DNA from: a virus
Taxonomy: Duplodnaviria; Caudoviricetes
Direction: 5' to 3' (one strand)
DNA length: 50,595 nt
IMG/VR virus record: IMGVR_UViG_3300009604_000003
Coordinates: 1-50,595 of that record
The translations under genes were made by a program, and so were the position numbers. This document shows positions 3,167 to 47,379 of the stretch, one piece after another (position 1 is the first letter of the stretch; each line of letters opens with the position of its first letter). Under the pieces are notes generated by a model. It searched no databases. It saw only the letters and a program-made list of their open reading frames with translations, and had not been told where the DNA came from.

Positions 3167-3215
3167 TGCACTGACTCCTACTAAACGATGAAAAACAAAT
3201 CAAAATCTGGCCTCT

Positions 3216-3268
3216 CTCCCCCTCCCCCCTCTCTCTTCATTCTGAAGAGAGAGAGGGGGGAGGGGGAG
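3216..3268. promoter_or_regulatory. Conserved bulged hairpin, copy A (core CTCTCTTCA-TTC-TGAAGAGAG)
   Basis: 24-bp stem, 3-nt loop, 2 extra nt in right arm; same core at 47380 and 50238. Confidence 0.8.
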
Positions 3269-3299
3269 GTATCCGGCTTCCCCCTCTCACGTTCCTGTT

Positions 3300-3423
3300 C
3301 CTGTATATGTGAACTCCTGTACATGTGAACTGCTCCTGTACATGTGAACTGCTCCTGTAACTGCACCTGTACATGTGAACTTCACCTGCACCTGTGTATG
3401 TGAACTTCACCTGTACATGTGAA
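3300..3423. repeat. Tandem CCTGTRYATGTGAA repeats (6 full copies, 1 truncated)
   Basis: Copies at about 3300, 3316, 3335, 3366, 3391, 3410. Confidence 0.9.
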
Positions 3424-3426
3424 AGC

Positions 3427-3537
3427 CTCACGTGAGGGAGTCGCACCCTCACGTGAGAATGGAGAGTTATATCTCACGTGAGGAGATCATCCTCACATGA
3501 GAAAACTCACGTAAGAGAGAGTTATCTCTCACGTGAG
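3427..3537. repeat. Array of CTCACGTGAG palindromes (4 perfect, 2 variant)
   Basis: Perfect at 3427, 3448, 3473, 3528; CTCACATGAG at 3492; CTCACGTAAG at 3506. Confidence 0.9.
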
Positions 3538-3550
3538 GGAAGGGAGAAAA

Positions 3551-3584
3551 ACTCCCTAGAGAGAGGGAAGTCCCTCTAGGGAGT
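3551..3584. other. Inverted repeat/hairpin downstream of early gene 2
   Basis: ACTCCCTAGAG...CTCTAGGGAGT, 11-bp arms with inner GAGGGA/TCCCTC. Confidence 0.7.
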
Positions 3585-3592
3585 GGGATTGA

Positions 3593-3892
3593 TCAGACCA
3601 TGGCAACCTCCCTTGGAACGAACGGGATTCCCTCCTGAAGGAGGAATCGTTCAGCCTCATCCCTCAGTATGGAGTAGTTGTAGTCCCCGTCTCCATTCAG
3701 ATCGAAGAGGTTGACATCCTCTCCTTCCTGAACAAAACCGTGAGAGAAAGCGAAGAAGATGAACTTGATGTCATTCTTCACGAACTCTGTAACTGAAACA
3801 GGTTCCTTCACGTGAAGGACTGTCTCTGTACCGCTAACGGGAAGTCCTGAAACTGTGACTCTCTCAGTCATAGACTCATTGAATAAACTCAT
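3593..3892 (-). CDS. Hypothetical immediate-early protein (acidic C-terminal half)
   Basis: 99-aa ORF with AGGGAG SD; hairpins inside the coding sequence. Confidence 0.75.
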   Translation of the reverse strand: MSLFNESMTERVTVSGLPVSGTETVLHVKEPVSVTEFVKNDIKFIFFAFSHGFVQEGEDVNLFDLNGDGDYNYSILRDEAERFLLQEGIPFVPREVAMV

Positions 3893-3938
3893 TGCTGTAC
3901 TCCCTTTCAGAGTAGAACTAAAGACTAAAATGGAAAAA

Positions 3939-3993
3939 CTCCCCCTCTCTCGGAGAGAGAGAGGGAGCGGATTCGATCTCTTCAGAAGAGATC
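3939..3993. other. Two adjacent intergenic hairpins
   Basis: CTCCCCCTCTCTC-GGA-GAGAGAGAGGGAG and GATCTCTTC-A-GAAGAGATC. Confidence 0.7.
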
Positions 3994-4477
3994 AGACTTG
4001 GTTACAGATCCAACGAGAGGTCTTCACTCTCTTAGCATTGTGAAAGATCTTGTTGAAGATCATTCCAGACTGAGAGACTCTCTCTTCAATGGGAAGAGAA
4101 AGCCAGTTCTCAATGGCAAAGTGCTGAGCCTTTGAAGCCCAAACTCGGTTCTCTAGGGAGAACCGGACATTCACTTCCAAACCGGGAAGTTGAGAGGCTT
4201 TCAGGGGAGGAACTGGCCATCCAGACAGTTTCACCAGAGACCTTCCCTCTTCAGCAGGGAGACAGTGAAACTTGATCTCAGTTTCAGTAGGAACTGAAAC
4301 TGGAGCCTCGTTCCCAGAACTCACAGAGTGAGTTCTGGAGAGTTCCATTTGGAGTTGGATCAGAGCCTTGGTACTGAGTCCTTGGAATGTAGCACCTCTC
4401 ATTGAAGGATGGTCCTTCTTGATCCTAGAGATGATACTTTTTCTTGGACTGAGACGATTCTTTGTTGAAACTGTCAT
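3992..4477 (-). CDS. Hypothetical immediate-early protein (first gene of the leftward transcript)
   Basis: 161-aa ORF with AGGAG SD; basic N-terminus; dense internal hairpins. Confidence 0.75.
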   Translation of the reverse strand: MTVSTKNRLSPRKSIISRIKKDHPSMRGATFQGLSTKALIQLQMELSRTHSVSSGNEAPVSVPTETEIKFHCLPAEEGRSLVKLSGWPVPPLKASQLPGLEVNVRFSLENRVWASKAQHFAIENWLSLPIEERVSQSGMIFNKIFHNAKRVKTSRWICNQV

Positions 4478-4539
4478 TGCAGAAATCTCCTAAATCGAAG
4501 AGGAAGAAATCCGAGCCGAGCCGAAACTTTTTCAGCCCG

Positions 4540-4651
4540 CTGCCCTTCTTTCTTCTCTCTTCTGTTCTCTTGAAGAGGGAAATCTCTCTCCCCTCACTTT
4601 GTTCGGGGAGAGATATTTCCCGTCGAACAGAAGAGAGAGAAAGAAGGGCAG
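4540..4651. promoter_or_regulatory. Long imperfect stem-loop upstream of the first early gene
   Basis: 27-bp outer stem with 1-nt bulge, plus 17-bp inner stem GGGAAATCTCTCTCCCC/GGGGAGAGATATTTCCC with one mismatch. Confidence 0.7.
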
Positions 4652-4709
4652 TACTTGCCATCTAACTATCTCCTAGTACTAAAGACATATGGCGTCGGCC
4701 TCGAAAATC

Positions 4710-4738
4710 GGGGGGAGGAGGGAGGGGAGGAGAGGGGG
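4710..4738 (+). other. Polypurine tract matching the G-quadruplex consensus
   Basis: G6-AGGA-G3-A-G4-AGGAGA-G5. Confidence 0.55.
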
Positions 4739-4812
4739 AAGTACAGATAACTAAGAAGACCGGACATCTTTGATGCTTACTTATCTATTAGAACTTACTA
4801 AGTCTCTTCACG

Positions 4813-5111
4813 ACAAACACTTAGAATCCATAGGATTATAAGTGTTTGTGAAACTCTGGTTTACCAGAGTTTCACGGCGCACGTTGGGTCACACAGTACA
4901 GAGTACTGTGTGACCCCGATCTGATTTCAAAGTACCACTTAGCATATCTCTTTGGAGATATGCTAAGTGAACCCAGCCACAACGTACCCCTTACTCTGTA
5001 AGGGGTACGTTGGTTTTCCAGAGCCGATCATCGCTTTACAGTACTAACAGGGTTAGTACTGTAAAGCGTACGCGTCTCAGGGGTCGGGTCACATCGTGAC
5101 CCGACCCCTGA
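4813..5111. repeat. Array of seven tandem sequence-distinct hairpins
   Basis: Stems of 13-17 bp with loops of 2-4 nt at 4813-4849, 4848-4875, 4886-4916, 4936-4969, 4980-5012, 5032-5068, 5077-5111. Confidence 0.95.
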
Positions 5112-5197
5112 CGGCGGGGTTGCTTTTTAGTTATAACCTGCCCCAAGCAAATCTAAATATTTTTGGTACACTCCAGACGATCACAGGAGGATCTCAA

Positions 5198-5554
5198 ATG
5201 GATATACCTATCCCTAAAAAAGCGTGGCCTATTACTGATAAGTTCTTGGTGTACCCCGATCCACCCGACAAGGAAACAGAGGCGGGTATTATAATCACCG
5301 CAAGTTACCCCAAGTTCACTGGAACTGTAGTCAAGTTACCAGCAGATATTGAGGCGATTGATAGTCGTGGTTCATCGCACACTAAGTTCGATGCGAAGAA
5401 GAACGATATCGGCACGTTTGTTACTGTCGGTTCACGAATCCAATGGTCTAGTCAAACCGGATTCGCGGTTCCAGTTACCGTAGATGTAGATGGGGAAGAC
5501 ACTGACTATCTTCTATTCACCATTAGAGATGTGGATTTGATACTAGATGTTTGA
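5198..5554 (+). CDS. groES: GroES-like co-chaperonin
   Basis: PITDKFLV, ETEAGIII mobile loop, GTVV, VTVGSRI, DGE..YLL..RDV pattern; ATG 5198 follows an AGGAGG SD. Confidence 0.8.
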   Translation: MDIPIPKKAWPITDKFLVYPDPPDKETEAGIIITASYPKFTGTVVKLPADIEAIDSRGSSHTKFDAKKNDIGTFVTVGSRIQWSSQTGFAVPVTVDVDGEDTDYLLFTIRDVDLILDV

Positions 5555-5669
5555 ATTGCCTTTTTTAACTATGATCGCAGATAAATGGAAACTTCCCTTC
5601 GATGAGGGAGAAGGTGATATATTAATAATAGAAGAAGAAGAAGAACCAGAGGACGAACCTGATGGTTAG
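5547..5669 (+). CDS. Small acidic protein (40 aa), not in the ORF track
   Basis: MFELPFLTMIADKWKLPFDEGEGDILIIEEEEEPEDEPDG; overlaps the groES stop and the terL start. Confidence 0.4.
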   Translation: MFELPFLTMIADKWKLPFDEGEGDILIIEEEEEPEDEPDG

Positions 5670-7905
5670 GACAAACAAGGGTTCTATGTCGGTTAGTGAG
5701 CAAGAAGCCACTAAGCACGGTATGTCTCTGCCTTATATTCCCGGTGCTGAGAAGCCTAGTTGGATAGATCGTAAAGAAGACGTTTGGCTTGATAAAGACC
5801 ATACGCAGATCAACCCCTCCTACTTGATTGAGGAGAGGGATAGGATCATCGATTTTTCTGACAAGCATTTTAATTACTATGGATTCCGCTGGCTCATGGA
5901 GGCGGATATGTTGAAGGGCATCGTAGAGCAGGCCAAGCACTTTGGTATTGACCTGACTACGTTTGCGCCCGAGACGCTTTCTTTGAAAGACATTCAGAAT
6001 TTTGACCAGTTGATAGAAGCGGGCAGTGAGACTCTTGAGATTCTCATTAAGCGCATTGAAGATGGTCATGAGCGGGCTGTCCGCATGTTGGACGAAGCAA
6101 AAAAAAAGCGTTGGGTCGATACGCTCAAGAAAATATCGATGGTAAGGGAATTGTGCAGAGAAAAAGATCACCCAAGTCTCGACGCAAAAAGTCGGGAGGG
6201 TGAGGCTTGGCGCTACATGCATACGCTTAGGTTTGCGTTGTATGTAGGGCGAAGTGACATTACCGGCAAGTTGGACTTCATCCACTTACCAGATCACCTG
6301 ATCCTTACGGATCTTGTGAAAGAGATCGCATACGAATATCGGGAAGACGCTGAGATTCAGGGTGTCATGATTGTCATCCCGCCTCGTCACGGAAAGTCAT
6401 GGTTCATGATTTTCGATGAGTTGCTTGCTATCTGCATGAATCCAGATGAAATTGGGGCGATCATCCATAACTCAGAGGACATGGCTGCCAGTCGTCTGAA
6501 GGTTATTAAAGAACATTTCAACGATCAGTTGCCGCAGGGGAAGCGGCGGCGTGCTTTGTTCCCCGAGATTAAGATGGATTGGAATATCAATAATAGTCAG
6601 ACGATGGTTCTTCAGAACCGGAATGTCATGGCGATGGAAGGGAACTGCAACTCGTACGGTTTGCACGGCAAGCGCCTCGGTGTCACGATTCACCGTCTTA
6701 GAGGTGATGACATCATTGACCAGAAAGAGTGCAGAGAATCGTCAACTAGACAGAGAACCAACGAAACCTTTACGAAGGTGTGGCTGTCTCGATTGACTTC
6801 GAAGAGAGCATTCTTCTTTATCATCGGTACTAGGTGGCATGACGATGACATCCTCGGAAAGATGCTCAGAATGCTTCGTGCCGGTCAGACCAATTTTGCA
6901 TATGTCTCCATCCCTGCTGGCGGGCCAGAGGATGACTTCACTCCTATCTGGCCGGAGGTAGGATACGACACAAGATATCTTGAGCGGTGGTTCTATACCT
7001 TGGGGCCACAGGACTACTCCTGCATTTTCCAGAATGATCCTGACACTGCAACAGCACGTAAAATCACGAAGTTATGGTTCTATGACAAGCGGTGGGTAGA
7101 AAATCCAGACGATGCTCCGCAGCATGTAAGGAACTTCTTAGCACGTGGAACTTATGCCCTATCGGTTGATCCTGCCGGAACAGAGGCTAGGAGATCTAAC
7201 AAGGCTGGAATGACTTATTGTGTGTATGGGCCTATGGAGGTGAAGTTGCCATCAGGCCTCATTGTTGAGCAACAAACTATGTGGTTCTTGCGCAACTGGG
7301 ACTTGTCTGCCAGTCAATACACCATTACAAAGATAATCTCGGACTTCTATAATAGGCAAAGAAGGGCGGATGGAAGGCCAGAGGTGGATCGTATAGTCGT
7401 TGAAACCACCGGGGGTTTCCATGCGACTACTGAGATGCTCATCAATGATCGTGGTATTCCTGATAGCGTGGTCATTAAACGCGCTCCGGGTAAGGGAAAT
7501 AAGATTGATCGGTTCCTCCAATACTCTGCGTTTATTGAGGGAGGCAAGGTCTATTTTCCGGGTACACCATCCAAGGGTATATCGGATGACGAGCAACTTG
7601 TTATGGACAACGATTGGTCTGAAGCGGCCAACCAGATGTTGCGAGCGGGTACTGTTAGTGATTTGAACCTGCTGGACTGTATATCCCAGCAGTTGGCAGA
7701 TGTCGCCTATATCTTCATGGAAGATAATGTCCACGATCATCCCGAACTTCTTGCTAGGGAGAGGGCGCGTCAATCTTCTTATGGCGAGGTTAAGTTGGAG
7801 ATGTACAAGAGGAAGATGGAGGGAGACAAGAGAAAGAAGGACCGAAGGAAGAATGGTTCATCTCTTGGTTATTTACGTCAAATTCAATCGAGGAGATTTG
7901 GGTAA
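5662..7905 (+). CDS. terL: Terminase large subunit with long N-terminal extension
   Basis: VIPPRHGKS Walker A, GDDIID Walker B, IIGTRWHDDD motif, SVDPA RNase H nuclease motif. Confidence 0.9.
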   Translation: MVRTNKGSMSVSEQEATKHGMSLPYIPGAEKPSWIDRKEDVWLDKDHTQINPSYLIEERDRIIDFSDKHFNYYGFRWLMEADMLKGIVEQAKHFGIDLTTFAPETLSLKDIQNFDQLIEAGSETLEILIKRIEDGHERAVRMLDEAKKKRWVDTLKKISMVRELCREKDHPSLDAKSREGEAWRYMHTLRFALYVGRSDITGKLDFIHLPDHLILTDLVKEIAYEYREDAEIQGVMIVIPPRHGKSWFMIFDELLAICMNPDEIGAIIHNSEDMAASRLKVIKEHFNDQLPQGKRRRALFPEIKMDWNINNSQTMVLQNRNVMAMEGNCNSYGLHGKRLGVTIHRLRGDDIIDQKECRESSTRQRTNETFTKVWLSRLTSKRAFFFIIGTRWHDDDILGKMLRMLRAGQTNFAYVSIPAGGPEDDFTPIWPEVGYDTRYLERWFYTLGPQDYSCIFQNDPDTATARKITKLWFYDKRWVENPDDAPQHVRNFLARGTYALSVDPAGTEARRSNKAGMTYCVYGPMEVKLPSGLIVEQQTMWFLRNWDLSASQYTITKIISDFYNRQRRADGRPEVDRIVVETTGGFHATTEMLINDRGIPDSVVIKRAPGKGNKIDRFLQYSAFIEGGKVYFPGTPSKGISDDEQLVMDNDWSEAANQMLRAGTVSDLNLLDCISQQLADVAYIFMEDNVHDHPELLARERARQSSYGEVKLEMYKRKMEGDKRKKDRRKNGSSLGYLRQIQSRRFG

Positions 7906-8273
7906 TGGGCATTACACTTGTAACGGTACTCGTAATGGGCGGGGTCGCTTTGGCAGCCATTGGGATCATGGTATTCCAGTGGAGTGTTGTTAATCGTTTG
8001 GAGGAGAAACTGATTTCCGTAGTAATGGACGTTCACGAGGAAAGCCGCTTCTATCACAATGCTGGCAGGTCAAGTGCCGAACATCAACTAAGCATTGAAA
8101 GATTGAATATAGAAAAGATCCAAGCAGAGGCCGAAAAAGCAAAGGCAGAAGCGGCTAGGATGACAGAAGAGAGATTGACAAAAGAAACATTTATAGGTAC
8201 AGGCCCTCCTAAACACGGAAAACGTGGACACCGTAGAACTGTCGTAGAGGCCGCAGGCGGACCAAATGGCTAA
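7905..8273 (+). CDS. Hypothetical membrane-anchored coiled-coil protein
   Basis: N-terminal hydrophobic helix and AEAEKAKAEAA coil; coupled to terL and portal. Confidence 0.7.
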   Translation: MGITLVTVLVMGGVALAAIGIMVFQWSVVNRLEEKLISVVMDVHEESRFYHNAGRSSAEHQLSIERLNIEKIQAEAEKAKAEAARMTEERLTKETFIGTGPPKHGKRGHRRTVVEAAGGPNG

Positions 8274-10371
8274 ATACTCATCAGCCAAAGAAATCTTAGA
8301 ACGAGTCGATGATTTACGCGAAGAGCATCAGATGCTTCGCGCAGATCTCGCGGTTTATAGCGCGTTGGGCGTGTCATATGCCCATGGCAAGCAGTGGAAG
8401 GGTATGGATTCTTCCAACTTTGGGGATCTTATTATTGATGAATGGGAAGAGAACTACGACTTGCAGACTCGTGAGTTGCGCGTCGTAGACAATAAGGTTG
8501 GCCCCCTGCTCAGGCGGATGCAGGCCGATCTAAACCCCACAAAAATTGAGGCGAAGGTTTCAACACCTCGCCACTTGTGGGGTTTGAAGGAGAATCAACT
8601 AGCCAATACATGCGAGAAATTGTTATTGGGTATTGAAGAAGATGCCCAATTCACGAAGGCGGCGGCCCATGCTAGTTTCATGCGGTGTATTGAAGGTAGC
8701 CATTTGATGGTTATCGAGTTGTCACAGAAGAAAAAGTCTATCAGGAAGGAGGTGATCAAGAATAAGGACGGGTCGCCGGTTGAGGTAAACGATAGATGGC
8801 TTAGGTGGACAACGGCTCCACTTACTGACTTGGTTTGGGATCCCTCTAATATCCACCCAGATCTAACCCAGCACACTGTTCTGATGCTTGATCAGGTCAA
8901 AACGATCAAGCGCTTTGAGGAGATGTTTGGTCCCATTGAAAAATATGGGGTTAAAGAAGAAGATCTTCCGACCCTTGATGAGATTGCTCCGTATTACTCA
9001 CAAGCCGCTGATATAACCGGAACATCTCTTCACATCGCCTATAACGCCTATCGCAAAGAGAAGGCGGTTAAGGTCATCACTCTCCTTGAGCGTGATCCAA
9101 GAGATCCCACCATTTGGCCTACTTGCTACTTCATTCTTGATACCTCTTCTAGAGAAACCAAGAGTCGTGGCAAGGTTTTGAATATGGATAATCCAAAGAG
9201 TCCCTTTGGGCACCATGGTCGCAACATATTCAAATTGGACTGCTTTAAGAGATCGGATTCTGTGTCGGGTGCAGGCGCGCCACATGTAATGATGACAACG
9301 CAGGATCTGATCAACATGCTGCGATCAATCCAGATGCAAGCGGTGTCAGCGCAGGTTCATGGGCAGTGGCTTGTAGATAAGCAGACTGTTGATCCAGATG
9401 AATTCATGAATAAACTGAACTCCGGTATAGGCTCGGTACTTCAGTACGACAGTCGTGGCCCGGAGAATCGGAAGCCACCGCAGTTGGTATCAATGGGGAA
9501 TGTTGACAACAACCTTCTCCTTATTGCCAATGATCTATCCAACGGTCTTAGAGATCAGATCCACTTGAGTGGTGCGAACTTGGGTATCGGTAAGACTCAC
9601 ATGCCACAGCAATATGCGTTGCGCCTCTTGGAAGAAGCGGGGGCGGTTAAGGATCAGTTGATCACTGCTGATGTGAATACATACGGTGATATGCTAAAGG
9701 TAACGCTTGGAACCATTAGAGATATCATGGATACGCCGAACAGAATGCTCAAAAGGCTTATCGATGTTCATGGGTTTACAAAGGAAGATCTGGTTGGTTT
9801 TAAGAAGTTGGATGCAAAACTGATCAGATTTAATATTTTTGCACGAGAAAAATCAATAATTAGTAGGAGTGTTGCGGAGAGGCAGCAGCAACTAACCGAG
9901 GCACTTCAAGCGCAAACCATTACGCCACAGGAGTATTGGATTGGCATGGCAACCGACATCAAACAGCCGATTCTTAACTCTCATGACGACATAATCAACT
10001 GGTGTAATCGCGCAGTAGAGCAAATAGTTAACGGTGAGGAGTGGCAGGGAGTGAGTTCAATCGATGCTTCTGTCTTCAAATACTGCATAAATACGGCTGT
10101 TACTGGCCTAGATTACACGATTCCCGAAGATAAAGAGATTATCGAGCGGCTTAATAGAGCGGTTCTAATTCAGTTCACGGTATCCGCTGAAGCAGCGATG
10201 GCTGAACAGCAGATACTCCAATCGGCCATGCCTCAGCAGCCGGGACCAGAGCCGCAGGGCATGCCAGAGGGTACTCCGGGTATGAGTATAGGGCAGGCAC
10301 CGGAATCAATTAACCCACAAACCAATCCAGTAGGAGCCGCAGGTGGATTACCACTTGGACTTTCTGCATAA
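8266..10371 (+). CDS. Portal protein (probable)
   Basis: 701 aa, between terL and scaffold/MCP; YAHGKQW and VVDNKVGP N-terminal pattern of P22-like portals; Q/P-rich tail. Confidence 0.75.
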   Translation: MAKYSSAKEILERVDDLREEHQMLRADLAVYSALGVSYAHGKQWKGMDSSNFGDLIIDEWEENYDLQTRELRVVDNKVGPLLRRMQADLNPTKIEAKVSTPRHLWGLKENQLANTCEKLLLGIEEDAQFTKAAAHASFMRCIEGSHLMVIELSQKKKSIRKEVIKNKDGSPVEVNDRWLRWTTAPLTDLVWDPSNIHPDLTQHTVLMLDQVKTIKRFEEMFGPIEKYGVKEEDLPTLDEIAPYYSQAADITGTSLHIAYNAYRKEKAVKVITLLERDPRDPTIWPTCYFILDTSSRETKSRGKVLNMDNPKSPFGHHGRNIFKLDCFKRSDSVSGAGAPHVMMTTQDLINMLRSIQMQAVSAQVHGQWLVDKQTVDPDEFMNKLNSGIGSVLQYDSRGPENRKPPQLVSMGNVDNNLLLIANDLSNGLRDQIHLSGANLGIGKTHMPQQYALRLLEEAGAVKDQLITADVNTYGDMLKVTLGTIRDIMDTPNRMLKRLIDVHGFTKEDLVGFKKLDAKLIRFNIFAREKSIISRSVAERQQQLTEALQAQTITPQEYWIGMATDIKQPILNSHDDIINWCNRAVEQIVNGEEWQGVSSIDASVFKYCINTAVTGLDYTIPEDKEIIERLNRAVLIQFTVSAEAAMAEQQILQSAMPQQPGPEPQGMPEGTPGMSIGQAPESINPQTNPVGAAGGLPLGLSA

Positions 10372-10393
10372 AAAATAGGGAAGGATCACTATA

Positions 10394-11368
10394 ATGAATC
10401 TCATGCTTAATACGCGATTACTGTCTTCAGATGCCCCTGACGGCGGAGGTGCCCCGGAATCCCCGGCCCCACTTCCTGCCCCAGCCGTATCAGAAGCAAC
10501 TACTGTTCCAGCCCCAGCATCCGCTCCGGCTCCAACAGAAGGTAATACTGTTTCACGCGATCAATATGATACTTTGGTCGAGAAGTACAATCGTGCCGAA
10601 GGGCGCGCTAAGACTTCGCAACGGCTTGCATCCACGGCGCAGCAATATGGTTTTGCTGATGCTGATGATCTTGCTAGACGATTGCCAAGTCTATTGAACC
10701 AACCGGTTCAACAGCAACCGCAACCGCAGCAGCCAGAGAATCCGGGCTATTACTATGGTCAATACTCCCAACAGGAGACAAGGCCAAGTAATTATTCGGA
10801 TCAGATCACTCCTTCAATGATTGATGAGCGCATCAATTCTCGTCTCGAATTTCAGACCTCTATCAACGATCACAATCTTGGTAGGGAATCTGAGAATCAG
10901 ATGATTGCGCGAATGATCACCGAATCCCCCGAGTTCAAAGATGCTTTTAGCGATTTGGATGCGGGAGACTACGGGAGTGTTTTCAACGCTGCTTATTCTG
11001 GTGGGGGTTCAGCGGCATCAGAGATCATTGCCTCTGCAATCGACAACGCCATTTATGGCGCTGCCGAAAAATATGGAGATAATCATCCGTCCCACTTACA
11101 TGGTCGGCCAATTCCCATTAAGGATCCAGTCGTTATCGATAAGGTTAAGGATCGCGTGATCGAAGGAATTAAGGAATTGGCAGCGATGACGGTCTTCGCT
11201 GCTTCCAAAGAAGGTTTGGTTGATTCGGTTATGACAGACAACTCTGTTTCTCCGGGCACTGATGTAGATTGGTTCGAAGCGAAAGATAAACGAGCCAAAG
11301 AAATCGCAGCATTTGCCCAGAAGAATTTTGAGAAGATGGCGAACGCCGGTCAGCCACAATCAAGTTAA
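10394..11368 (+). CDS. Capsid scaffolding protein (probable)
   Basis: P/A-rich disordered N-terminus, helical/Q-rich body, directly upstream of the MCP. Confidence 0.6.
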   Translation: MNLMLNTRLLSSDAPDGGGAPESPAPLPAPAVSEATTVPAPASAPAPTEGNTVSRDQYDTLVEKYNRAEGRAKTSQRLASTAQQYGFADADDLARRLPSLLNQPVQQQPQPQQPENPGYYYGQYSQQETRPSNYSDQITPSMIDERINSRLEFQTSINDHNLGRESENQMIARMITESPEFKDAFSDLDAGDYGSVFNAAYSGGGSAASEIIASAIDNAIYGAAEKYGDNHPSHLHGRPIPIKDPVVIDKVKDRVIEGIKELAAMTVFAASKEGLVDSVMTDNSVSPGTDVDWFEAKDKRAKEIAAFAQKNFEKMANAGQPQSS

Positions 11369-11379
11369 GGACATAAGAC

Positions 11380-12915
11380 ATGGCTGTTTCTGACAATGTT
11401 ATTGCTTATTTAACGTCGTGGTCTGATGCCTTCGAACAGTTTTACCGTCCCGGTGTTGGTGACTATCTCAAGCGTTTTGGTAAAACCACGCGCGCGATCT
11501 CTAAGAATCCTAAGAGGCGCGTGATTGGTGGATCCATGGAAGTCACAATGAAGACTCGTAAGAACCGATCCGCACGGCTCACAACGGACCTGATGGCCCC
11601 GCCACCAGATGCCGGACCCGGTGCGTACACGACTTACAAAGTCCGATTTGATCATACGACCCCCGCGTCGAATGACTTCTCCGCGCTTCAGATTGGTTTC
11701 CAGACCTCATGGTACGACATCAAGAAGAAGGCTGATAACACGTTTAAGGATTCTGCTGGAGACTTCATCCGGCAGGATATCGAAGATGGTTTAGAAGATG
11801 TCGCAGAAGAATTTGCAGGTTCGTTCCATTACCCCGCAAATGCAAAACTTGCAACCATTACTGGTGCCGCAGATCTTGTTAAACTTAATGACTCGGATCT
11901 ATTTGATAGTGCTTCGGCCTTTACGGGCACTGTCGCTGAGTGTCTCGTTAAGGTTGACAAGAGTGCAATGGCACATCTTGGTGATGGTGATCTAGTTGAT
12001 ATTTACAATGCAACAGAAGGCGACAACATGGAACTTCGTGCTTGTCGCATTATCAACGTAAATGCCGTTGACTATACTTTAGTTCTCTCAATTGAAACTG
12101 GCACAACGCTACTTGACGGTGGCGGTGCTGCTGCTAACTTCACTTCTTTTGAAGCCAAGGTGAATGATGATAACGATGTTATGCATCTTTACCACAGTGG
12201 CTCATTTGAAGAGGATGGCAGTCCAGATTCAGGCGCGACAATCAAGGGTTGTTTGAATAACTTCTTCGACCCATCAACTGATTGGTTTAACATCGCTACG
12301 GCTAACCGCCTTAATGCTACATATCGAACACTTAATCCTGTTCGTATCGATGCATCGGCGGGTGGCAGTGATGTCCAGTTGACGGGAGATCACTTCCGTC
12401 AGGCTGGTGAGGCTGTAGGTTGGGCAAACGGCTCTTATCTTGACACCGATTCACGAATGATCGTTATGAACCGCGATCAGTATCGTGCGGTTAACCTGCT
12501 TCAGGCAGATTCAGGCATGACTGTTTTGCCTGCTCTTCAGTCTGATGTTGGTAACAAGATGAATAAGGCGTTTGGATTTGATGGTTGGACTCTTCATGAT
12601 CCGACTCTTGGTTCTGTTCTTCTTACAGTGGATGATATGGCCGCTTACGGTGTGATCGACTTCCTCGATATTCCCTCTTGGGAATACGTTGAGCCGTTCC
12701 CCGGCGGTGCATCCTTTGACTTCCTCCCCGGACAGATGGCTAAGATCTGGCATCGGACGCACTATAACAGTGCTTCTACGGCCCAGAACTACAACGCCAA
12801 GTACGATGGTCGTCCAAGTAAGGAGTTCGAGGCTCAGGGCGAACAACTTTACGCATGGATCAATACTGCTCCTAAGCGTAATGTTCGGATTATGGGACTT
12901 GATTCGACTCTGTAA
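11380..12915 (+). CDS. Major capsid protein (probable)
   Basis: 511 aa after the scaffold, AAGGA SD, followed by a terminator-like hairpin; APKRNVRI C-terminal strand resembles HK97-fold MCPs. Confidence 0.7.
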   Translation: MAVSDNVIAYLTSWSDAFEQFYRPGVGDYLKRFGKTTRAISKNPKRRVIGGSMEVTMKTRKNRSARLTTDLMAPPPDAGPGAYTTYKVRFDHTTPASNDFSALQIGFQTSWYDIKKKADNTFKDSAGDFIRQDIEDGLEDVAEEFAGSFHYPANAKLATITGAADLVKLNDSDLFDSASAFTGTVAECLVKVDKSAMAHLGDGDLVDIYNATEGDNMELRACRIINVNAVDYTLVLSIETGTTLLDGGGAAANFTSFEAKVNDDNDVMHLYHSGSFEEDGSPDSGATIKGCLNNFFDPSTDWFNIATANRLNATYRTLNPVRIDASAGGSDVQLTGDHFRQAGEAVGWANGSYLDTDSRMIVMNRDQYRAVNLLQADSGMTVLPALQSDVGNKMNKAFGFDGWTLHDPTLGSVLLTVDDMAAYGVIDFLDIPSWEYVEPFPGGASFDFLPGQMAKIWHRTHYNSASTAQNYNAKYDGRPSKEFEAQGEQLYAWINTAPKRNVRIMGLDSTL

Positions 12916-12946
12916 TTCAGATCATTCTCCTCCTTTCCCAGATAGT

Positions 12947-12984
12947 GGGGGGGTAGGCCGAAAGGCCGCCCCCCCTCATCTTTT
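12947..12984 (+). terminator. Intrinsic terminator-like hairpin after MCP
   Basis: GGGGGGGTAGGCC-GAAA-GGCCGCCCCCCC then TCATCTTTT. Confidence 0.65.
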
Positions 12985-13149
12985 ATGGAAGATATTAGAA
13001 CTAGAGACACTCTCGTGGAAATGGCTAAAGCCTTCGGTATATCCGAAGAGTTGCTAAAGCACTTGTCAGTAACATCTCTTAGGCGGATAATAGAATATGA
13101 AACGGAGGTAAAGGATGGGAATAGCAAAGTACAGACATCTACTGACTGA
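12985..13149 (+). CDS. Small hypothetical protein (54 aa), not in the ORF track
   Basis: MEDIRTRDTLVEMAKAFGISEELLKHLSVTSLRRIIEYE...; fills the gap on the coding strand. Confidence 0.5.
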   Translation: MEDIRTRDTLVEMAKAFGISEELLKHLSVTSLRRIIEYETEVKDGNSKVQTSTD

Positions 13150-13585
13150 ATTGGATCGCGCTCCGTATGGCGGGGGAATGGGTGCAGAGGCATTTGATCG
13201 AGAGTTGTTTTCTCGAATAGGATGTAACATTGCTTGGCACCGTACTCGTCGGTGTTATGTTGTTTATAAACATGTAGGGAATAACATTAAGACCTATATG
13301 GATATAGTTCCAGAGAGACACTTTCCTCTCGTCTCTACTCTTATTCCATTGGTCATGAGTACAATTAAAGCAGCCAATGCTTATATGAGTGAGGATCCTA
13401 GTCGGGCTATTCTTGAGTATTTCTCTCGTGCTAAGGTAGAAAGGAAAAGGGATATCAAGGATTATGTTGATGAACGATTCCCTGACTTTAGGCGATATGC
13501 TGAGTGGTCTTGGAACAAACTTAATTCGCCACATTCAAGATCTATTACCAAGCCAAACATGAAAACCGCTTATAATCTTCAGTGA
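13115..13585 (+). CDS. Hypothetical protein
   Basis: 156-aa ORF with GGAGG SD. Confidence 0.7.
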   Translation: MGIAKYRHLLTELDRAPYGGGMGAEAFDRELFSRIGCNIAWHRTRRCYVVYKHVGNNIKTYMDIVPERHFPLVSTLIPLVMSTIKAANAYMSEDPSRAILEYFSRAKVERKRDIKDYVDERFPDFRRYAEWSWNKLNSPHSRSITKPNMKTAYNLQ

Positions 13586-13596
13586 TCCTCCCCTAA

Positions 13597-13664
13597 CTAC
13601 TGTAAGTGAGCGCTCACTTGCAGTAGATCAATCGGGGCTTCGGCCCCGGCTTAACGCCGATTGA
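13597..13664 (+). promoter_or_regulatory. Palindrome plus putative three-way-junction RNA leader
   Basis: CTACTGTAAGTGAGC/GCTCACTTGCAGTAG; then TCAATC-[GGGGC-TTCG-GCCCC]-[GGC-TTAAC-GCC]-GATTGA abutting the SD. Confidence 0.55.
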
Positions 13665-13677
13665 AAGGAAAAACCAA

Positions 13678-14187
13678 ATGGCGCGAAAAAACACTGCCCC
13701 TAAGAATTCTCCGTACAAAATTGACGCTATTAACTACACCACCGCTGACGTGCTGAGTGATACTACTGGTCAAGGTGGAAGCCCTCGAAACCTCACAAGC
13801 ATTTGGGAAAAATTGAACTCAATGTGCTTTGATGTTGAGTGGACGATTGGCGCTGAGTCCGGAAATGCCATCATTGTTACTGCCCAACTCTTGGATCTCA
13901 AGCGTCGAAACCTTGGTCGATATGCGTCTGGAATTTTCAGTCTTCACTCCTCAGATGCAGCAGGTGCTTCGTATGGTGCAATTGATACTGCAACTGAAGG
14001 GCTAACTCTCTCAACGGGAGAGTGGATGCACGAAGAACTTACGGACTCGCTGGCACTTGTACAAACAAACTCAGACGGCAAGATAGTCTTCAGTATTAGC
14101 GAAACTACTGGTGCGGATCACTTTAAGTGCATCCTGCATATTGGTGATCGAGTTTTCCTGAGTCCGCTTATTGCCTTCGCAGCATAA
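13678..14187 (+). CDS. Virion structural/decoration protein, Ig-like (probable)
   Basis: Beta-rich; IIVTAQLLD and QTNSDGKIVFSI resemble Big-1 Ig-like domains. Confidence 0.5.
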   Translation: MARKNTAPKNSPYKIDAINYTTADVLSDTTGQGGSPRNLTSIWEKLNSMCFDVEWTIGAESGNAIIVTAQLLDLKRRNLGRYASGIFSLHSSDAAGASYGAIDTATEGLTLSTGEWMHEELTDSLALVQTNSDGKIVFSISETTGADHFKCILHIGDRVFLSPLIAFAA

Positions 14188-14205
14188 TCTAAGGAGTCTT
14201 AGATA

Positions 14206-15450
14206 ATGGCTGTCTTCGTCTATGGCGCACCTCCGGTTTTTACGGGCAAAGTCTCGACAGACTCTTGGTTTCCTGTCAGGCTTGTGGATGCTACCGATCT
14301 AAAGACAGGTGAAGCAAGTATTGCCTATGGCGATCTCACGGTTAAATACAAAATAGCCGGAACTGCTAGTGCTGCCACATATTCAATCGCTTCTGCTGAT
14401 TGGGTAGAACACGCAGATGGTCACTATTCCATGCGTATTGGAGCAGCCGAGTTTACTGCCGCTGGTAACTATTCTGTTTGGATAGACGCTACCGCAACAG
14501 CGGCGACAAGTTTCTCGGTTCAAGTATTTGCTGCAACTATAGATGATCTTGTCCGCTCGACTACACCAGCCAATGCATTAACGGTTGTGAGTGGGCGGGT
14601 AGATGTAGGTAAGTGGCTTGGCACGGCAGTTACGGTAAATGCTACTACCAGTAAGCCTGATGTGGATGTGTTTGGTATTAGTAGTGATGCGACAGCCGCA
14701 GATAACTTGGAGTTGATTACTGAGCAGTCGCGTGGTGTTGATATAGCCGAATGGAATGGTACGGCAGTCACACTCACTGGAGGTCTGCCAGATATCAATG
14801 TCAAGTCTATTAGTGGCGATTCGGCAGCAGCCGATACTCTCGAATCCATCATAGATGGGGGTGCCAATATCGGTGCTAATATATTGGCTGTTAGTGATGA
14901 TGCAACCGCAGCCTCAAATCTGGAACTCATAATTGAAGGCACCAATCTCCTCTCTGTCGATGCGATTAAGATTAGCGGGGATACGACAGCAGCAGATAAC
15001 CTTGAGTTGTTTACTGAAACACTATCTTCCGGCAAGTTGGCGGCAGGTTCTCTTTCTGACGATACGATTACAGCAGCATCTATTGCTACAAATGCCATTG
15101 CCGCTGATGGGTTAGCCACGGATGCTGTTGCAGAGATCGCTGATCAGGTTTGGGATGAAGCAACATCAGGCCATACTACAAGCGGCACCTTTGGCGAACA
15201 GTTGAAGACAGATGTAGATGCTATTCTTGCGGATACCGGAACTGATGGGGTACAGATTGACCTTACCCAAAACTTGCTAGAAACACATAGCGGTCTTCAG
15301 GTGGGTAAGGCTTTGTATCTGGCTCTTGCTCACTTCGGTCACAAGTGGACTACATCTGGTGGAAATAGCAAGGTATACAAGGCTGATAGCGCTACTCTAT
15401 TCCAGACAAGAGTTATTACTAGTACCACGGAAATACAGAAGGGTTCGTAA
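14206..15450 (+). CDS. Virion fibre/structural protein with internal repeats
   Basis: A/T/D-rich; four ISxDxxAAxNLE repeats; IADQVWDE motif. Confidence 0.6.
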   Translation: MAVFVYGAPPVFTGKVSTDSWFPVRLVDATDLKTGEASIAYGDLTVKYKIAGTASAATYSIASADWVEHADGHYSMRIGAAEFTAAGNYSVWIDATATAATSFSVQVFAATIDDLVRSTTPANALTVVSGRVDVGKWLGTAVTVNATTSKPDVDVFGISSDATAADNLELITEQSRGVDIAEWNGTAVTLTGGLPDINVKSISGDSAAADTLESIIDGGANIGANILAVSDDATAASNLELIIEGTNLLSVDAIKISGDTTAADNLELFTETLSSGKLAAGSLSDDTITAASIATNAIAADGLATDAVAEIADQVWDEATSGHTTSGTFGEQLKTDVDAILADTGTDGVQIDLTQNLLETHSGLQVGKALYLALAHFGHKWTTSGGNSKVYKADSATLFQTRVITSTTEIQKGS

Positions 15451-16325
15451 TGGCATCGTATCCACCACCCACATTTTCGCCGAGTCTTCCGGCCCCAGTG
15501 CCGTTTATAGGCCAACCCATGGTAGGTGCGCCCGACCCATCTTTAATGGGTTCTCGTGGTATAATGTCGCACCTACCTTCAACAGCATCAAGAGAGGCTT
15601 TCTCTCAATTACCGCAGGTAGCACAACGCGCTGCTCAGGCTGCGTTTACCCCCCCGCCGCCATTGGTTTTCGATGAAATACTCGGGCGATTCGGCAATCC
15701 CGGGATACCTCTTCATCGAGAAGGGGCACAGCCTATCGCCGATAGATTGTTTAGTACAACGGCTGAGTTAGACCGAGCGAAAAAAGCACAACAGATGGCA
15801 CAACAGTTGGCAACGCGCTTCCCATCGGAGTACGCACCGCACGGTTGGGCCTCCTTCGAGGATAATGTGCGATTAGGTAGGAGAGTCCCTAATGCTGCAT
15901 GGTTGGAGACTCAGGCTAGTCAGACCCCATGGAAGACACCATGGAGTGAAGACACCATTAGGTTCAAGAGAGAATTGAGCAAGGCTGGAAGACGAGCCAC
16001 ATTAGGAAGAGTGGCAGGAAGGGGCCTTGGCTACTTAGCGACTGGTGCCGGAGTAGCGAATTATCCCCTTCTAGGTTATGCCGCTGGTCAGTTCCTTGGT
16101 CAGGCCCACGAAGAACCTAGTTATCGTGTCGGAACACCTGAATTCATGGATCGGTATTGGCCAATTGAATGGGGTGCGAATCCGCCTGCTCCAAGTCCAG
16201 AAAGAACCGATATACCGAGTCAATATGATATTGATAGGGTTATGGGAGTGAACCCCGGTATGGGTCGTGAAGAAGCATATGCCTTGTGGCAGTCACGAAA
16301 CGTACTTCCGATACCTTATAGATAA
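15450..16325 (+). CDS. Hypothetical protein (P-rich)
   Basis: 291-aa ORF coupled by TAATG; last gene of the + strand block. Confidence 0.7.
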   Translation: MASYPPPTFSPSLPAPVPFIGQPMVGAPDPSLMGSRGIMSHLPSTASREAFSQLPQVAQRAAQAAFTPPPPLVFDEILGRFGNPGIPLHREGAQPIADRLFSTTAELDRAKKAQQMAQQLATRFPSEYAPHGWASFEDNVRLGRRVPNAAWLETQASQTPWKTPWSEDTIRFKRELSKAGRRATLGRVAGRGLGYLATGAGVANYPLLGYAAGQFLGQAHEEPSYRVGTPEFMDRYWPIEWGANPPAPSPERTDIPSQYDIDRVMGVNPGMGREEAYALWQSRNVLPIPYR

Positions 16326-17091: not shown

Positions 17092-20000
17092 TTAGAACTT
17101 AGGTTGCTGCGGAATATGTTGTCCGGGGACAAATCCCTCGCGCCTAAGAACCGTCATATCCTCTCTTCTAAATTGCGGATGTAGCACCTTGGGAACCCTC
17201 TGTCTCATGCCAGAATGCCACATAATCCGATACTCTTGAATAATTCTTGTTGCTATACTTTCTGCTAAAACTTCGTCGCCTTCTCTTACTGCTCTATTTA
17301 CCTGTCTTTTTAAAGCCTGAATATCCTTGTTTCTTTCCATGCTAATTCGCATCTGCAATTTTCCGATGTCTAGCGGCTGCCATCTACCCCTAACCGCTAG
17401 TTTATATAGTACACCCTCTAAGCCGTCTGTTTTCCCTGCTTGTGTTAATTGATTATAAGAACCAACCCACCCGATTTGCCTTCTTAGATACTCTCCGATT
17501 GATAACCCGCCGAGTTCTTTGTCTCCGATTAGTCGTTGATCGAAGGTTTGTATTCCCAAAGCAATTTCAATTGGTGCCTTAATTAAAGGCGAAGAAGACA
17601 TAAGGAAATAATGCATCATTTCCTTCAATCCTTCTGCGCCATAGAGTGCTTGACCGATTTCCGCGAGTTCTTGAATAGGTGTTAGTGTCCCAATCCTAAG
17701 ACCCTTGGTGGTACCGTCATCCGCGCTCATCTGTATCATGAGTTGATTGCGCTGATATCGCGGCAATATAAATGTCGGTACTTTATCTTCTTCCTTTAAT
17801 GTTTCTTCCTCTATCGCGTGTTTGATCTTCTGGAAAGAAGCGTGATATTTAGGTTTCTCGAATAGCAGTTTGAATTGAAGTGCAATGTTATTTCTCTGCC
17901 ACGCATAGAATGGAATAACTCGTCGTCCAATAGACTGTTCGAGATTGGTGAAGTCCCCGTAATCGAAGTGCGCCTTCTTCATCAACAACTGGGCTGCTTC
18001 CAGAGAATCGCCCCTGTCTCGCCTTGCCATATAAACAAGTGTTCTAAATGTATCGTCGATAGATGCATTTAGTTTGAACCACCAAGCACCAAGTGGACCT
18101 GCGGTGGCGATATTTTTAAGGAAGCCTTGTTTAACCTTTCGGGCCTGTGCATTGGGATTGGCGTAGGCCGTTCTATGAGTCATAAAGATTTCGCGCGCAA
18201 CCTGACTTCCATCCAGCGCATTAATACGAACAAGATGTTCGGCAAACTGCGTTTCGTTTAATTCTTCACCCGCAATGATATATTTTTTGGTGTCGTCGAA
18301 AGACAGTCCCGGTCCATGTGGAATGGTTTTTGCCAACCTGTTGCCGAAGTGGTATTGGCTCGCAATATGATGTGCCTTCCTGAAGTTTCTAAAGAAATCA
18401 GCGGGCGTAAGTTCTCCAACTACGATTGAGTGGATGACTCCCCCCATTATATTTACAGTGGTCCAGCCGGGGTGCATCAGGACCGTACCTTTCCAGATGG
18501 ATTGTATGTAATCAAACATACCGGCTATAGCGGATAGATTCTGGTCGTTGGTTATCTTGGTTAGATAATCTTCAACGGATGCTGCGAGATCTTCTGGATA
18601 CCAGAGATGCTTCCCCTCAGTTCCAAATAGCGCTTGTAGTGTTGCATCGTCTCTGACTTCTTTAGACAATCTTCGGTAAGAAACATTATTAATAATGATC
18701 TCCCCGCCTTCGCTAATTGATCCTACTCCAGCGCGGGGGTTTCTTACATAATCCTGAATCTCAGCATCCTTTAGGATCTTTATTTCAGGGCCAATGTAAT
18801 TCAGGAAATCATGCACTGCTTCTATGCGGTGATGTTGCTTGGCTCTGTTCCCAAGAACAAGACCTAAATCAGTTTCGAAGATTTCTCCCGCAAAACTATT
18901 GCCAGTTAAGTGTGCAAATCTGTCTCTTACACCCGGTCTATTTAGTTCATATGGGCTAGTTGGGTGTGCTTTGAACTGCCACGATTCACCTTTAATATCG
19001 CCTCCGGGCAGCCCGCCAGTTTTGCCTTCTGCAAGTAGCGCTTGGTTATATTCCGCGATATCTCCGGGCAGCATCTTCTCCGGGTTTTGTCGTAGGAATG
19101 TTCGTCTTGCTAGTTCATACGCCTCTGGCAAATTGCCATCGTTTATCTGCTGGCTAAATACATAGGACCAACCCTGACCAGTTTCATCAACCCAGTCCGG
19201 GTCATGTTCTGTTGGATACCAATGCCTGTTCGTTGCCCTATGTCTACCGGATGGCTCGTTTATCGATATCCTTCCGGTAGAAGGATTCCTTCGAACACCA
19301 AGAGCGCCCTGTTGATATGCCGCTTTTTGCGCTTCCTTGGTAAATCGTAATGGTATATAGGCAAATGCGGGGTTATACGTGCCCTGTGCGGCCCAATCCG
19401 ATTCACTTAATCCATATTGTCTATGCCTATCAACAACCTCTTGGGCTAGATCCGTGATCTGCTGATCCTTCCAGATAGCATCTCGCCCCCCATGCTTAGC
19501 CATTACGTTGTCTAGTGACTGAGGATTAGATGGATCAAATATCCAATCTGATTTATGGAATCCTCTTAGACCGTGTTTGCCGCCTTCTTGCAGTTCTATC
19601 ATCTTGGCGAGGAGGATTACATTAGCGTCCTCGATATCCATGTCGTGTCTTTTTGCTATTGTCTTTACACTTTTGTCATAGTGCCTAATAACAAGAGACT
19701 GCTTGAATCCCGGCAGGTTGCCGTGTGCGTATCTGAATCTCGATACGGCTTCACCAGATGTAGCATATCTTCTACCAACACCAGTTACGTTTCGGAATAC
19801 CCGATCAAATCTTTCCGCTACTTTAGCCGCTGAGTTTACACGGCTTTTCTTCATGGTATCCAACTTCGCGTCAATGGGTGCCCTTGCTTTACGAGCGGCA
19901 TCTCTAGCCATCTGCACTTTTTCGTTTAGATCTACAGTCGAACTGGCAAGATCTTCTATATGGTTATAGTGCCCTCTGTTCTTGGCTTCAATCCGGGCCT

Positions 20001-30346: not shown

Positions 30347-30607
30347 TTAGTAGCCTAGTTCAGGCCCGCCACCCATCATGGGGGGCGGCCCGCCCATTGG
30401 CGGCCCCATTGGTGGAGGTCCACCCATGGGGGGTCCACCCATCGGCGGTCCCATCATGGATGGGGGTGGCATTTCCATGCCTTCGGGGGGCATGGGCATT
30501 TCTCCGCCCATATCCATCTCCCTCTGACCCTCAACCAAGATCATTTGTATGGCATCCAAGATGCCCATCGGGTCGTATCCGAAATCAATACCATTCACAT
30601 TGGGCAT
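30347..30607 (-). CDS. Small P/M/G-rich protein
   Basis: PPMGG repeats; coupled to neighbours. Confidence 0.6.
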   Translation of the reverse strand: MPNVNGIDFGYDPMGILDAIQMILVEGQREMDMGGEMPMPPEGMEMPPPSMMGPPMGGPPMGGPPPMGPPMGGPPPMMGGGPELGY

Positions 30608-31008: not shown

Positions 31009-31102
31009 CTAGTCTCTGCACCTTCCGCTTACTTTAATACCATTCAGCGGCTTGGCTCAGGATTGCCGGTTCTCGGTTTCCCTGAATTCACCCAGTAAAG
31101 GC

Positions 31103-38747: not shown

Positions 38748-38975
38748 GGATACTTGGGACACATGGGACACATGTTCTTATAAAGCCCAATCAACTCTAT
38801 TCGCTTACTCTCTTTTTGTTATATATTTCTACTGTTTAATGTGTCCCAAGTGTCCCAAGTGTCCCAGCCCCAAAAAAAATTGTGTGTAAATATTTGTCAA
38901 CACAGGCCTTATAAAACTTCCTGAGACTGTGGCCCTTCGCCCAACATGTGTCCCAACATGTGTCCCATGTGTCCT
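38748..38975. repeat. Putative replication origin: GTGTCCC iterons around an AT-rich spacer
   Basis: GGGACAC x2 (inverted), GTGTCCC x3 at 38841-38865, two more plus a variant at 38948-38975; immediately downstream of the primase-helicase gene. Confidence 0.7.
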
Positions 38976-43944: not shown

Positions 43945-43963
43945 GTTGCGCCTTCCTTTCAAA

Positions 43964-44022: not shown

Positions 44023-44051
44023 GCACGCCTCCGGGTAAAAAAGAGGTGATA

Positions 44052-47369: not shown

Positions 47370-47379
47370 TTTTCATTAC

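Follow-up and report, generated by a model that had tools for sequence, protein, structure and literature searches.

An array of unrelated, near-perfect hairpins beside a conserved control box in an uncultured marine phage genome

Seven hairpins, H1 to H7, follow one another between positions 4813 and 5111 in the genome of an uncultured marine phage, the complete IMG/VR virus record IMGVR_UViG_3300009604_000003 (50,595 bp, here called the window). They are packed into ca. 300 nt of non-coding DNA, with stems of 13–17 bp and loops of 2–4 nt, and six of the seven are perfect. The hairpins are real and statistically exceptional. At the same locus an array recurs whose sequences are unrelated, and the box of sequence that flanks it is conserved. 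The best explanation is that H1–H7 are the strongest part of a lineage-specific, fast-evolving fold-back array between this control box and the first conserved early gene. That the array is the structured 5' leader of the early transcript is a tentative reading, for which we infer the position and direction of a promoter, the transcription of the array and its effect on RNA.

Hairpins H1 to H7

H1, 4813..4849: arms of 17 nt, 94% complementary, with one G.A mismatch; loop ATA (3 nt)
H2, 4848..4875: arms of 13 nt, 100% complementary; loop TT (2 nt); overlaps H1 by 2 nt
H3, 4886..4916: arms of 14 nt, 100% complementary; loop AGA (3 nt); apex GTAC-N3-GTAC
H4, 4936..4969: arms of 15 nt, 100% complementary; loop TTTG (4 nt)
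H5, 4980..5012: arms of 15 nt, 100% complementary; loop TCT (3 nt)
H6, 5032..5068: arms of 17 nt, 100% complementary; loop AGG (3 nt)
H7, 5077..5111: arms of 16 nt, 100% complementary; loop ATC (3 nt); right arm (5096–5111) inside the conserved box

A first-pass annotation of the window had described seven hairpins here, and all seven are found at those positions, with arms and loops of the sizes claimed. Direct reading of the sequence also bears out its counts of C:G closing pairs (six of the seven hairpins) and AC-NNN-GT apices (four of the seven), as well as its statement that no T-tract follows. There are no G.T pairs in the stems.

A genome-wide palindrome scan against shuffled controls, the check that the first-pass annotation had proposed, found 23 perfect hairpins with stems of 8 bp or more and loops of 2–6 nt in the whole window, where 20 dinucleotide shuffles gave 1–7 (mean 3.1). 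Ten stems reached 11 bp or more, as against 0–1 in the shuffles, and the 50.6 kb genome has six perfect stems of at least 13 bp, all of them within 4848–5111. Folded as DNA, the segment 4805–5125 reaches −113.2 kcal/mol, while 100 shuffles gave −37.6 ± 3.8 (z = −20.1; none of the 100 as low). As minus-strand RNA the same segment has a z of −18.0, and again none of 100 shuffles matches its fold. A chance origin of the hairpins is excluded.

The array is not an artefact of assembly, because near-identical copies are found in contigs of independent marine runs. Eighteen of 20 public marine runs hold at least half of the sampled words of the stretch; none of the 20 listed runs is RNA, and the comparison used assembled contigs. 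A contig of 1828 nt from run X11 reads through 3900–5157 with one difference, and contigs from X19 and X20 contain parts of the array with zero differences. Two further contigs, X14 record 9 (4578–5127) and X20 record 26 (4745–4896), also overlap the array and show 5 differences each.

No sequence is common to all seven stems. Three pairs of stems share a 7-mer – CACTTAG in H1 and H4, GGGTCAC in H3 and H7, ACAGTAC in H3 and H6 – and an arm of H7 belongs to the conserved box, so the earlier statement that the stems are not copies of each other is right for the set but needs this qualification. A CRISPR array or a tandem repeat, which the first-pass annotation had also rejected, is ruled out: the units are inverted repeats of differing sequences, and the only output of Tandem Repeats Finder is a 7-nt CTTCTTT run (4545–4568).

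At the gathering score of Rfam 15, no family matches at the array, and the only match in the window is a group I intron at 30920–31175. A permissive Rfam scan of 4300–5300 gave generic matches of the miRNA-precursor kind, at 20–37 bits compared to gathering scores of 35–230. No tRNA was found in the window. In a search for antisense targets, array k-mers of 11–13 nt were found elsewhere in the window at or below the chance level, and none of at least 12 nt recurs. The proposal that the array is a decoy for host proteins finds nothing in its favour in this lack of recurrence, nor in the prokaryote genomes of GTDB, where H3, the one hairpin tested, has no copy among 185,579 genomes.

The locus in related phages

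Searches with the large terminase (TerL) of the window yielded eight related loci: the IMG/VR records G001 (49.5 kb) and G002 (48.2 kb) and the metagenome contigs L012, L013, L014, L015, L016 and L017. L014 duplicates G001, and the window and its relatives together make eight distinct phages that were compared. Alignments of TerL and the major capsid protein (MCP) in IMG/VR gave only G001, G002 and one distant locus, and searches of IMG/VR with patterns of the box returned 41, 0 and 13 loci, none of them true relatives. The ends of the G001 record (L009 1–240; L010 9213–9452) repeat ca. 240 nt with 2 mismatches, spanning the conserved box; this is probably a complete genome, assembled as a circle and broken because of strain variation.

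H1–H7 are part of a longer stretch, 3167–5111, that is rich in hairpins and poor in open reading frames (ORFs). In the terminase and portal genes, which served as coding controls, the hairpin count is at expectation. Counts of perfect hairpins of at least 7 bp at the locus, the numbers expected from shuffles, and the folding z-scores are as follows:

Window, 3167..5111: 17 hairpins, 1.5 expected; z −15.6 (for 4478–5197)
L017: 21 hairpins in 845 nt, with 45% of the bases in stems, 0.34 expected; z −14.5
L012: 2 hairpins, 0.35 expected; z −6.7
L013: 4 hairpins, 0.5 expected; z −2.0
G001: 1 hairpin, 0.22 expected; z +0.1

To the left of the box the sequences of the relatives are unrelated to the window, and the array shares nothing with them, despite terminases that are 71–80% identical. 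Other strains in the run contigs diverge from the window at 5098–5104. The 21 hairpins of L017 have no sequence relation to those of the window. In L012 and L016 the motif G(T/C)GA(N)TCG occurs five times each, always in plus orientation and within the loop of an imperfect hairpin, while G001 and G002 have short direct repeats at the locus (read by eye). The G(T/C)GA(N)TCG copies lie at 2213–2770 in L012 and 1–205 in L016; their variable base is the N of GANTC, a CcrM/HinfI-type site, and GANTC density at these repeat stretches is 14–29 per kb compared to 4–5 per kb elsewhere in the two contigs.

The hairpins have features of shape in common. Of the 44 perfect hairpins in the window, L017, L012 and L013, 21 close on C:G, where about a quarter would be expected, and 20 have a loop of 3 nt. 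Stems also stop sharply: in a set of 59 looser hairpins (stems of at least 6 bp, with L016 and G001 added), only 5 have three or more further pairs after the first mismatch. C:G closure, 3-nt loops and abrupt stem ends suggest selection for fold-back stability, and they make a series of operators for dimeric proteins less likely. The hairpins thus seem to be kept for fold-back stability rather than for sequence; across the relatives, shape is only partly conserved. The first-pass view that shape rather than sequence is selected agrees with the closing pairs, the loops and the unrelated hairpins of L017; it does not extend to G001, which has no hairpins above chance, and L012 and L013 have few. 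The observation that the same annotation had named as refuting it, relatives devoid of hairpins at the locus, has thus been made in part.

The elements at this locus that lie outside H1–H7 are:

3943–3965, 3975–3993, 4146–4165, 4279–4302 and 4314–4338: five perfect hairpins of 8–11 bp, three of them inside the putative early gene orf161
4540..4651: imperfect inverted repeat of 112 nt (79% identity), one arm CT-rich and the other GA-rich
4710..4741, plus strand: all-purine tract of 32 nt, rich in G-runs (at least 4), between the CGGACAT motif and the large inverted repeat
4761..4767, plus strand: CGGACAT motif
about 5098..5172: conserved control box of ca. 75 nt, immediately right of the array, in all 8 phages compared; its parts are ACCCCTGAC..GGGGT (5104–5120), a TATA-like element, CCTGCCCCAAGCAAAT (5137–5152) and TGGTACACT (5164–5172)

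The purine tract could form a G-quadruplex. CGGACAT is found in the same orientation, 288–367 nt left of the box, in all five relatives with enough upstream sequence. On the minus strand the motif reads ATGTCCG and could supply a start codon. The ORF that it opens has 61 aa in G001 but just 3–35 aa in L017, L012 and the window (read by eye), and a conserved gene start was rejected.

H7 connects the array to the box. Its right arm lies in the box, and in L015 the counterpart of this arm, GTGACCCG..CCCCTGAC, is present while the left arm is missing, so H7 is apparently an inverted duplication of the box edge. An arm of H3 is a mosaic of the 7-mers shared with H7 and H6.

Early leader, DNA element and other readings

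The genes of the window fall into two opposed blocks, so 4478–5197 is the only divergent intergenic region in the genome, and both flanking operons point away from the array. The plus-strand structural block (5198–16325) encodes a GroES-like protein, the large terminase, a P22-like portal and others. The minus-strand block runs from 4477 leftwards round the circle to 16316 and includes genes for a MoxR-like AAA protein, ArdA, a SNF2 helicase, an AEP PrimPol-helicase (38974–41382) and a giant protein of 3418 aa. The genes nearest to the array are:

3992..4477, minus strand: orf161, putative first early gene, no family match
5198..5554, plus strand: GroES-like small protein (weak matches), first gene of the rightward structural block
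5662..7905, plus strand: large terminase (TerL), the anchor used to find the relatives

No homologue of orf161 was found in the relatives or among 5.8 billion proteins, and it may not be a genuine gene. Between the array and the AAA gene lie three putative ORFs (161, 99 and 71 aa), none with a homologue in the relatives, and the untranslated stretch may therefore exceed 720 nt.

The box presumably holds the divergent early and late promoters. TGGTACACT sits 25–33 nt ahead of the start codon of the GroES-like gene. A repeated late-promoter motif was considered for TGGTACACT and rejected, as it is unique in the window, with one-mismatch occurrences at the chance level. On the minus strand of the box, an A/T-rich tract is followed by TTGCTT, TTGCTC or TTCGCG, 16–17 nt, and TAnAnn in six of the eight phages; the window and L015 deviate. 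In this promoter reading TTGCTT is the −35-like element, with TTCGCG in its place in the G+C-rich relatives, and the rows for L011 and G001 were read by eye. Leftward transcription would then begin near 5117, six bases short of H7.

New hairpins seem to arise by local inverted duplication, as the box edge with its inverted copy in H7 and the mosaic arm of H3 suggest. In the leader reading, a leftward early promoter in the box would start transcription near 5117. The first phage RNA would then carry H7 ca. 6 nt from its 5' end, and after it H6 to H1 as a succession of RNA hairpins. The resulting leader would be fully structured and free of ORFs. It might resist nucleases that depend on a 5' end, as well as the loading of Rho, and might offer processing sites of the RNase III type, like the hairpins in most early-operon gaps.

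Three observations hint at RNA. A.C juxtapositions, which are G.U on the minus strand, are in excess at stem ends (20 of the 59, compared to ca. 17–20% expected; P ~0.005). Gaps of the early operon also carry hairpins (3229, 3943/3975, 47391, 49122 and 50250), and most of its intergenic gaps are occupied. There is no ORF of at least 40 aa in 4666–5095.

Several observations weigh against the leader. There are no G.U pairs within the ca. 300 bp of stems and six of the seven hairpins are perfect, which is stricter than RNA needs and suits DNA better. Raw folding energies favour the minus strand, but the difference is gone after per-strand shuffles: corrected for composition the strands fold equally well, with an excess over shuffles of −118 (plus) and −134 (minus) in the window and −134 (plus) and −120 (minus) in L017. 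A consensus scanner calls no minus-strand promoter in the box of the window, L016, L017 or L012, though its consensus may not be that of the host; in L017 it calls no promoter at all. It does call a plus-strand promoter, CTGACG-17-TATAAT, in the box of L016 and L012, and a minus-strand TTGACA-17-GAGAAT left of the variable region in L012. If this last promoter is real, the variable region lies between promoters and is untranscribed. With G001 at z = +0.1 and little structure in L013 and L012, hairpins are not required by the clade. GTAC is the sole palindromic 4-mer enriched in the window at 4478–5111 (17.4 per kb compared to 3.0 per kb), and is enriched at the same locus in L017, L012, L016 and G001; an RNA shield leaves this enrichment without explanation.

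The array may instead be an element that acts as DNA, a doubtful reading, though one almost as probable as the leader and the most serious of the alternatives: cruciforms, or hairpins in transiently single-stranded DNA, beside or between divergent early and late promoters, which would take up or sense negative supercoiling and in this way insulate the two promoters or tune them, or would bind proteins that recognise junctions or hairpins. Cruciform extrusion is poorly tolerant of mismatches. Six perfect stems out of seven, the absence of G.T, loops of 2–4 nt and C:G closure, which is symmetric on both strands, fit such an element, as do the equal folding of the two strands after composition control, the place of the array in the only divergent intergenic region, and the L012 scan, with its minus-strand promoter to the left and plus-strand promoter to the right of the variable region. 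However, promoter positions are uncertain in the window and in L017, G001 has no hairpin excess, and hairpins extend far to the left, among and inside the putative early ORFs, where a role between promoters does not apply. The excess of A.C at stem ends is also unexpected for a purely double-stranded element; the first-pass preference for DNA over RNA thus has the near-perfect Watson-Crick stems without G.T on its side and this excess against it. In its boldest form, to which we give the same doubtful standing, the array would represent a distinct class of phage cis element, a sequence-agnostic "hairpin cassette" beside an early/late control box. It would be refilled continually by local inverted duplication and selected only for perfect stems, 3-nt loops and C:G closure. 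Its active form would be extruded DNA – for example a torsional buffer, a gate for first transcription, or bait or shield against host proteins that sense hairpins, junctions or DNA ends – and not RNA or a set of protein-binding sequences. Neither the RNA nor the DNA line of evidence is decisive.

It is unlikely that the hairpins are a functionless by-product of an unconstrained spacer, in which perfect inverted duplications gather by template switching. H7 is visibly an inverted copy of adjacent conserved sequence, the 7-mers shared among stems form a mosaic pattern, turnover between relatives is complete, and G001 lacks hairpins. Against this, 45% of the 845 nt of L017 is in perfect stems and hairpin density is 25–60 times that of shuffles. 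Mutation alone predicts neither the C:G bias of the closing pairs nor the bias to 3-nt loops, the distance from CGGACAT to the box stays within 288–367 nt, and on general grounds a 50-kb phage is unlikely to retain 0.6–1.9 kb of useless DNA.

A replication origin or priming zone, with the hairpins as single-strand initiation signals for the PrimPol-helicase and GTAC as the recognition motif, is rather improbable. The phage has a gene for an AEP PrimPol that is fused to a helicase-size protein, no DNA polymerase was found among the ORFs scanned, GTAC and CGTACG are enriched at the locus across the clade, and L012 and L016 each have iteron-like repeats there in one orientation (5 of 5 forward in each). 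However, the window contains a better candidate:

38755–38967: iteron cluster; the 8-mer TGGGACAC occurs seven times with a spacing of 9 nt, in two inverted sets that flank A/T-rich DNA

This cluster is placed between the PrimPol-helicase gene, which it follows directly, and a small ORF that resembles a helix-turn-helix protein (by eye). It is conserved with the same sequence and layout in G001 (34666–34879, 7 copies) and G002 (33566–33797, 3 copies), and is likely a replication origin or master operator. Because the conserved cluster adjoins the PrimPol gene, an origin at the array is unlikely. The array moreover has no sequence in common with relatives of 71–80% terminase identity, and the DnaA box TTWTNCACA occurs 0 times in the window. 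An origin of the iteron type at the array was rejected: H1–H7 have no repeated unit, and GTAC enrichment is the only repeat-like signal.

A packaging or entry module, an idea of the first-pass annotation, has very little probability; the array would then be a recognition site of the pac/cos type or an end-protecting structure next to the terminase genes, at or near the physical end of the genome. The array lies ca. 90–550 nt upstream of the GroES-like and TerL genes, the contigs of G001 and G002 begin ca. 150–160 nt left of the box, and the ends of G001 repeat. The first-pass annotation had taken the locus for the likely physical genome end, which finds no support: the ends of the record overlap by 123 bp away from the hairpin locus, so the window is a circular assembly with an arbitrary cut point, and the X11 contig passes through 3900–5157. 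Contig breaks at 5098–5157 are explained by strains that share the box and differ leftwards of it (loose ends, parallel 142-nt contigs), and such strain mixtures are why the contigs of relatives tend to begin at this locus. A recognition site should also be conserved, whereas no part of the locus is less conserved than the array.

The least probable of these readings, and a remote one, is a bank of factor-independent bidirectional terminators or attenuators. The stems are stable and contain G+C, the loops are short, and clusters of hairpins have been proposed as bacterial terminators (PMC8355165). In L017 the scanner flags 7 terminator-like sites, compared to 0.8 in shuffles. However, none of the seven hairpins of the window has a T-tract on either strand, and the array is downstream of no gene and upstream of both operons. 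The only terminator-like call in 4300–5400 of the window is a conserved small hairpin at 5102–5122, and none of H1–H7 was called.

Genome features and comparison with known systems

The phage is far from those that have been described. A blastn search of 4400–5700 against 50,697 phage records gave no match. In a tblastn search with TerL, 153 phage records matched, all at less than 60% identity, and there is thus no cultured relative; identity to known phages is 21–27%. No relative was found in a TerL search of GTDB genomes, and the 27 homologues of the capsid protein, besides itself, are all marine metagenome sequences.

Long hairpins built around CTCTCTTCA-TTC-TGAAGAGAG, their 5' arm rich in CT and their 3' arm in GA, form a family with members in the window at 3214–3268, 47377–47425 and 50236–50285. 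The three copies lie in early-operon intergenic gaps, just upstream of start codons, and a related hairpin is found in the G+C-rich relative L013 (262–292). The group I intron (minus strand, 76.5 bits, E = 9e-18) lies between ORFs at 31103–32020 and 30607–31008, and the gene that hosts it is probably split. An ArdA anti-restriction homologue is encoded in the early/middle block (43679–44167, minus strand, E = 7.5e-13). AGCT occurs 0 times in the 50,595 bp, where 195 occurrences are expected from base composition. It is the only 4-mer at less than 20% of expectation in the window, and is likewise absent from ca. 55 kb of relatives' sequence (L060, L061, L012, L013 and L010). The pattern suggests that the clade as a whole strongly avoids an AGCT-specific restriction system. 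GATC is normal in the window and does not occur in L012, L016 or L017.

The giant protein (17092–27348, minus strand) matches no Pfam family and has a zincin-like HEMGH motif near residue 2338. It weakly resembles clusters of the large polyvalent protein LPD39 (Atlas score 0.85, a lead only) and is likely to be injected as a multi-domain protein. It also matched no PHROG of known function, and no solved RNA polymerase at E up to 1, a search in which a remote fold-level relationship was not tested. RNA-polymerase motif patterns gave a few matches in the protein, and these carry no weight.

If the hairpins are functional, selection acts on the shape of the nucleic acid alone. The window and L017 have 7 and 21 wholly different perfect hairpins in the same place, with terminases in the 71–80% identity range, while other relatives have differing repeats or none. 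The locus would then be a natural system for the role of tandem minimal-loop hairpins at the start of an early programme, whether in the protection or processing of RNA, the handling of supercoils or the encounter with hairpin-sensing defences (Lamassu, SbcCD), and for how blocks of hairpins are generated. It would also bear on the place of the box and the conserved TGGGACAC cluster in a control map of a widespread uncultured marine lineage with almost no annotated genes. If the array is merely a structured leader, it is an ordinary though extreme example.

Full-text literature searches gave no account of unrelated perfect hairpins arrayed in tandem in a phage, and several known systems resemble the array in part. 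The early promoters of coliphage N4 are three hairpins with stems of 5–7 bp, 3-nt loops and conserved sequence, each before genes, and are read by an injected virion RNA polymerase. The present phage likewise has hairpins with 3-nt loops where its early region begins, and it too is podovirus-like and encodes a giant protein of virion size. Unlike those of N4, the stems of the array are 13–17 bp and have no common sequence, and five of the seven loops are of 3 nt. Hairpin promoters of the N4 type were rejected, since the stems are too long, they lack a common sequence and the giant protein is unlike solved RNA polymerases.

The ssi hairpins of plasmid and phage primases, such as ssiA and ssiB of RSF1010 with RepB', are sequence-specific and few. 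The likeness lies in a DNA hairpin as the functional form and in the AEP-type primase of the phage, which has a weak RepB-primase/PriCT match. In contrast to the ssi sites, the sequences in the array are unrelated, and the iteron cluster elsewhere is the better origin candidate.

Hairpins of the RNase III type in T7-like phages can, as DNA palindromes, trigger the Lamassu/DdmABC defence (10.1101/2022.11.18.517080). There too a genome has several early intergenic palindromes, foldable in RNA or in single-stranded DNA. The T7-like sites in that study (10.1101/2022.11.18.517080) are dispersed, single and often similar to each other, whereas the array consists of seven unrelated hairpins in tandem. 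Palindromes can thus be a liability, which makes the array harder to explain as neutral. The hairpin-cluster terminators (PMC8355165) share with the array several adjacent hairpins in a non-coding gap; they sit downstream of stop codons at the ends of operons, while the array is upstream of both operons and has no T-tracts.

In phage T5, untranslated repeat regions around the injection stop signal contain palindromes and inverted repeats whose function is unresolved (10.1101/866236). Like these, the array is a long non-coding stretch crowded with palindromes in the early part of a lytic phage genome. The T5 repeats, according to the same report (10.1101/866236), are conserved in sequence and order across 25 relatives, contain DnaA boxes and lie in a long terminal repeat. 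In the present lineage the sequences of the array are not conserved between relatives, the DnaA box is missing from the window, and no terminal repeat is found at the locus.

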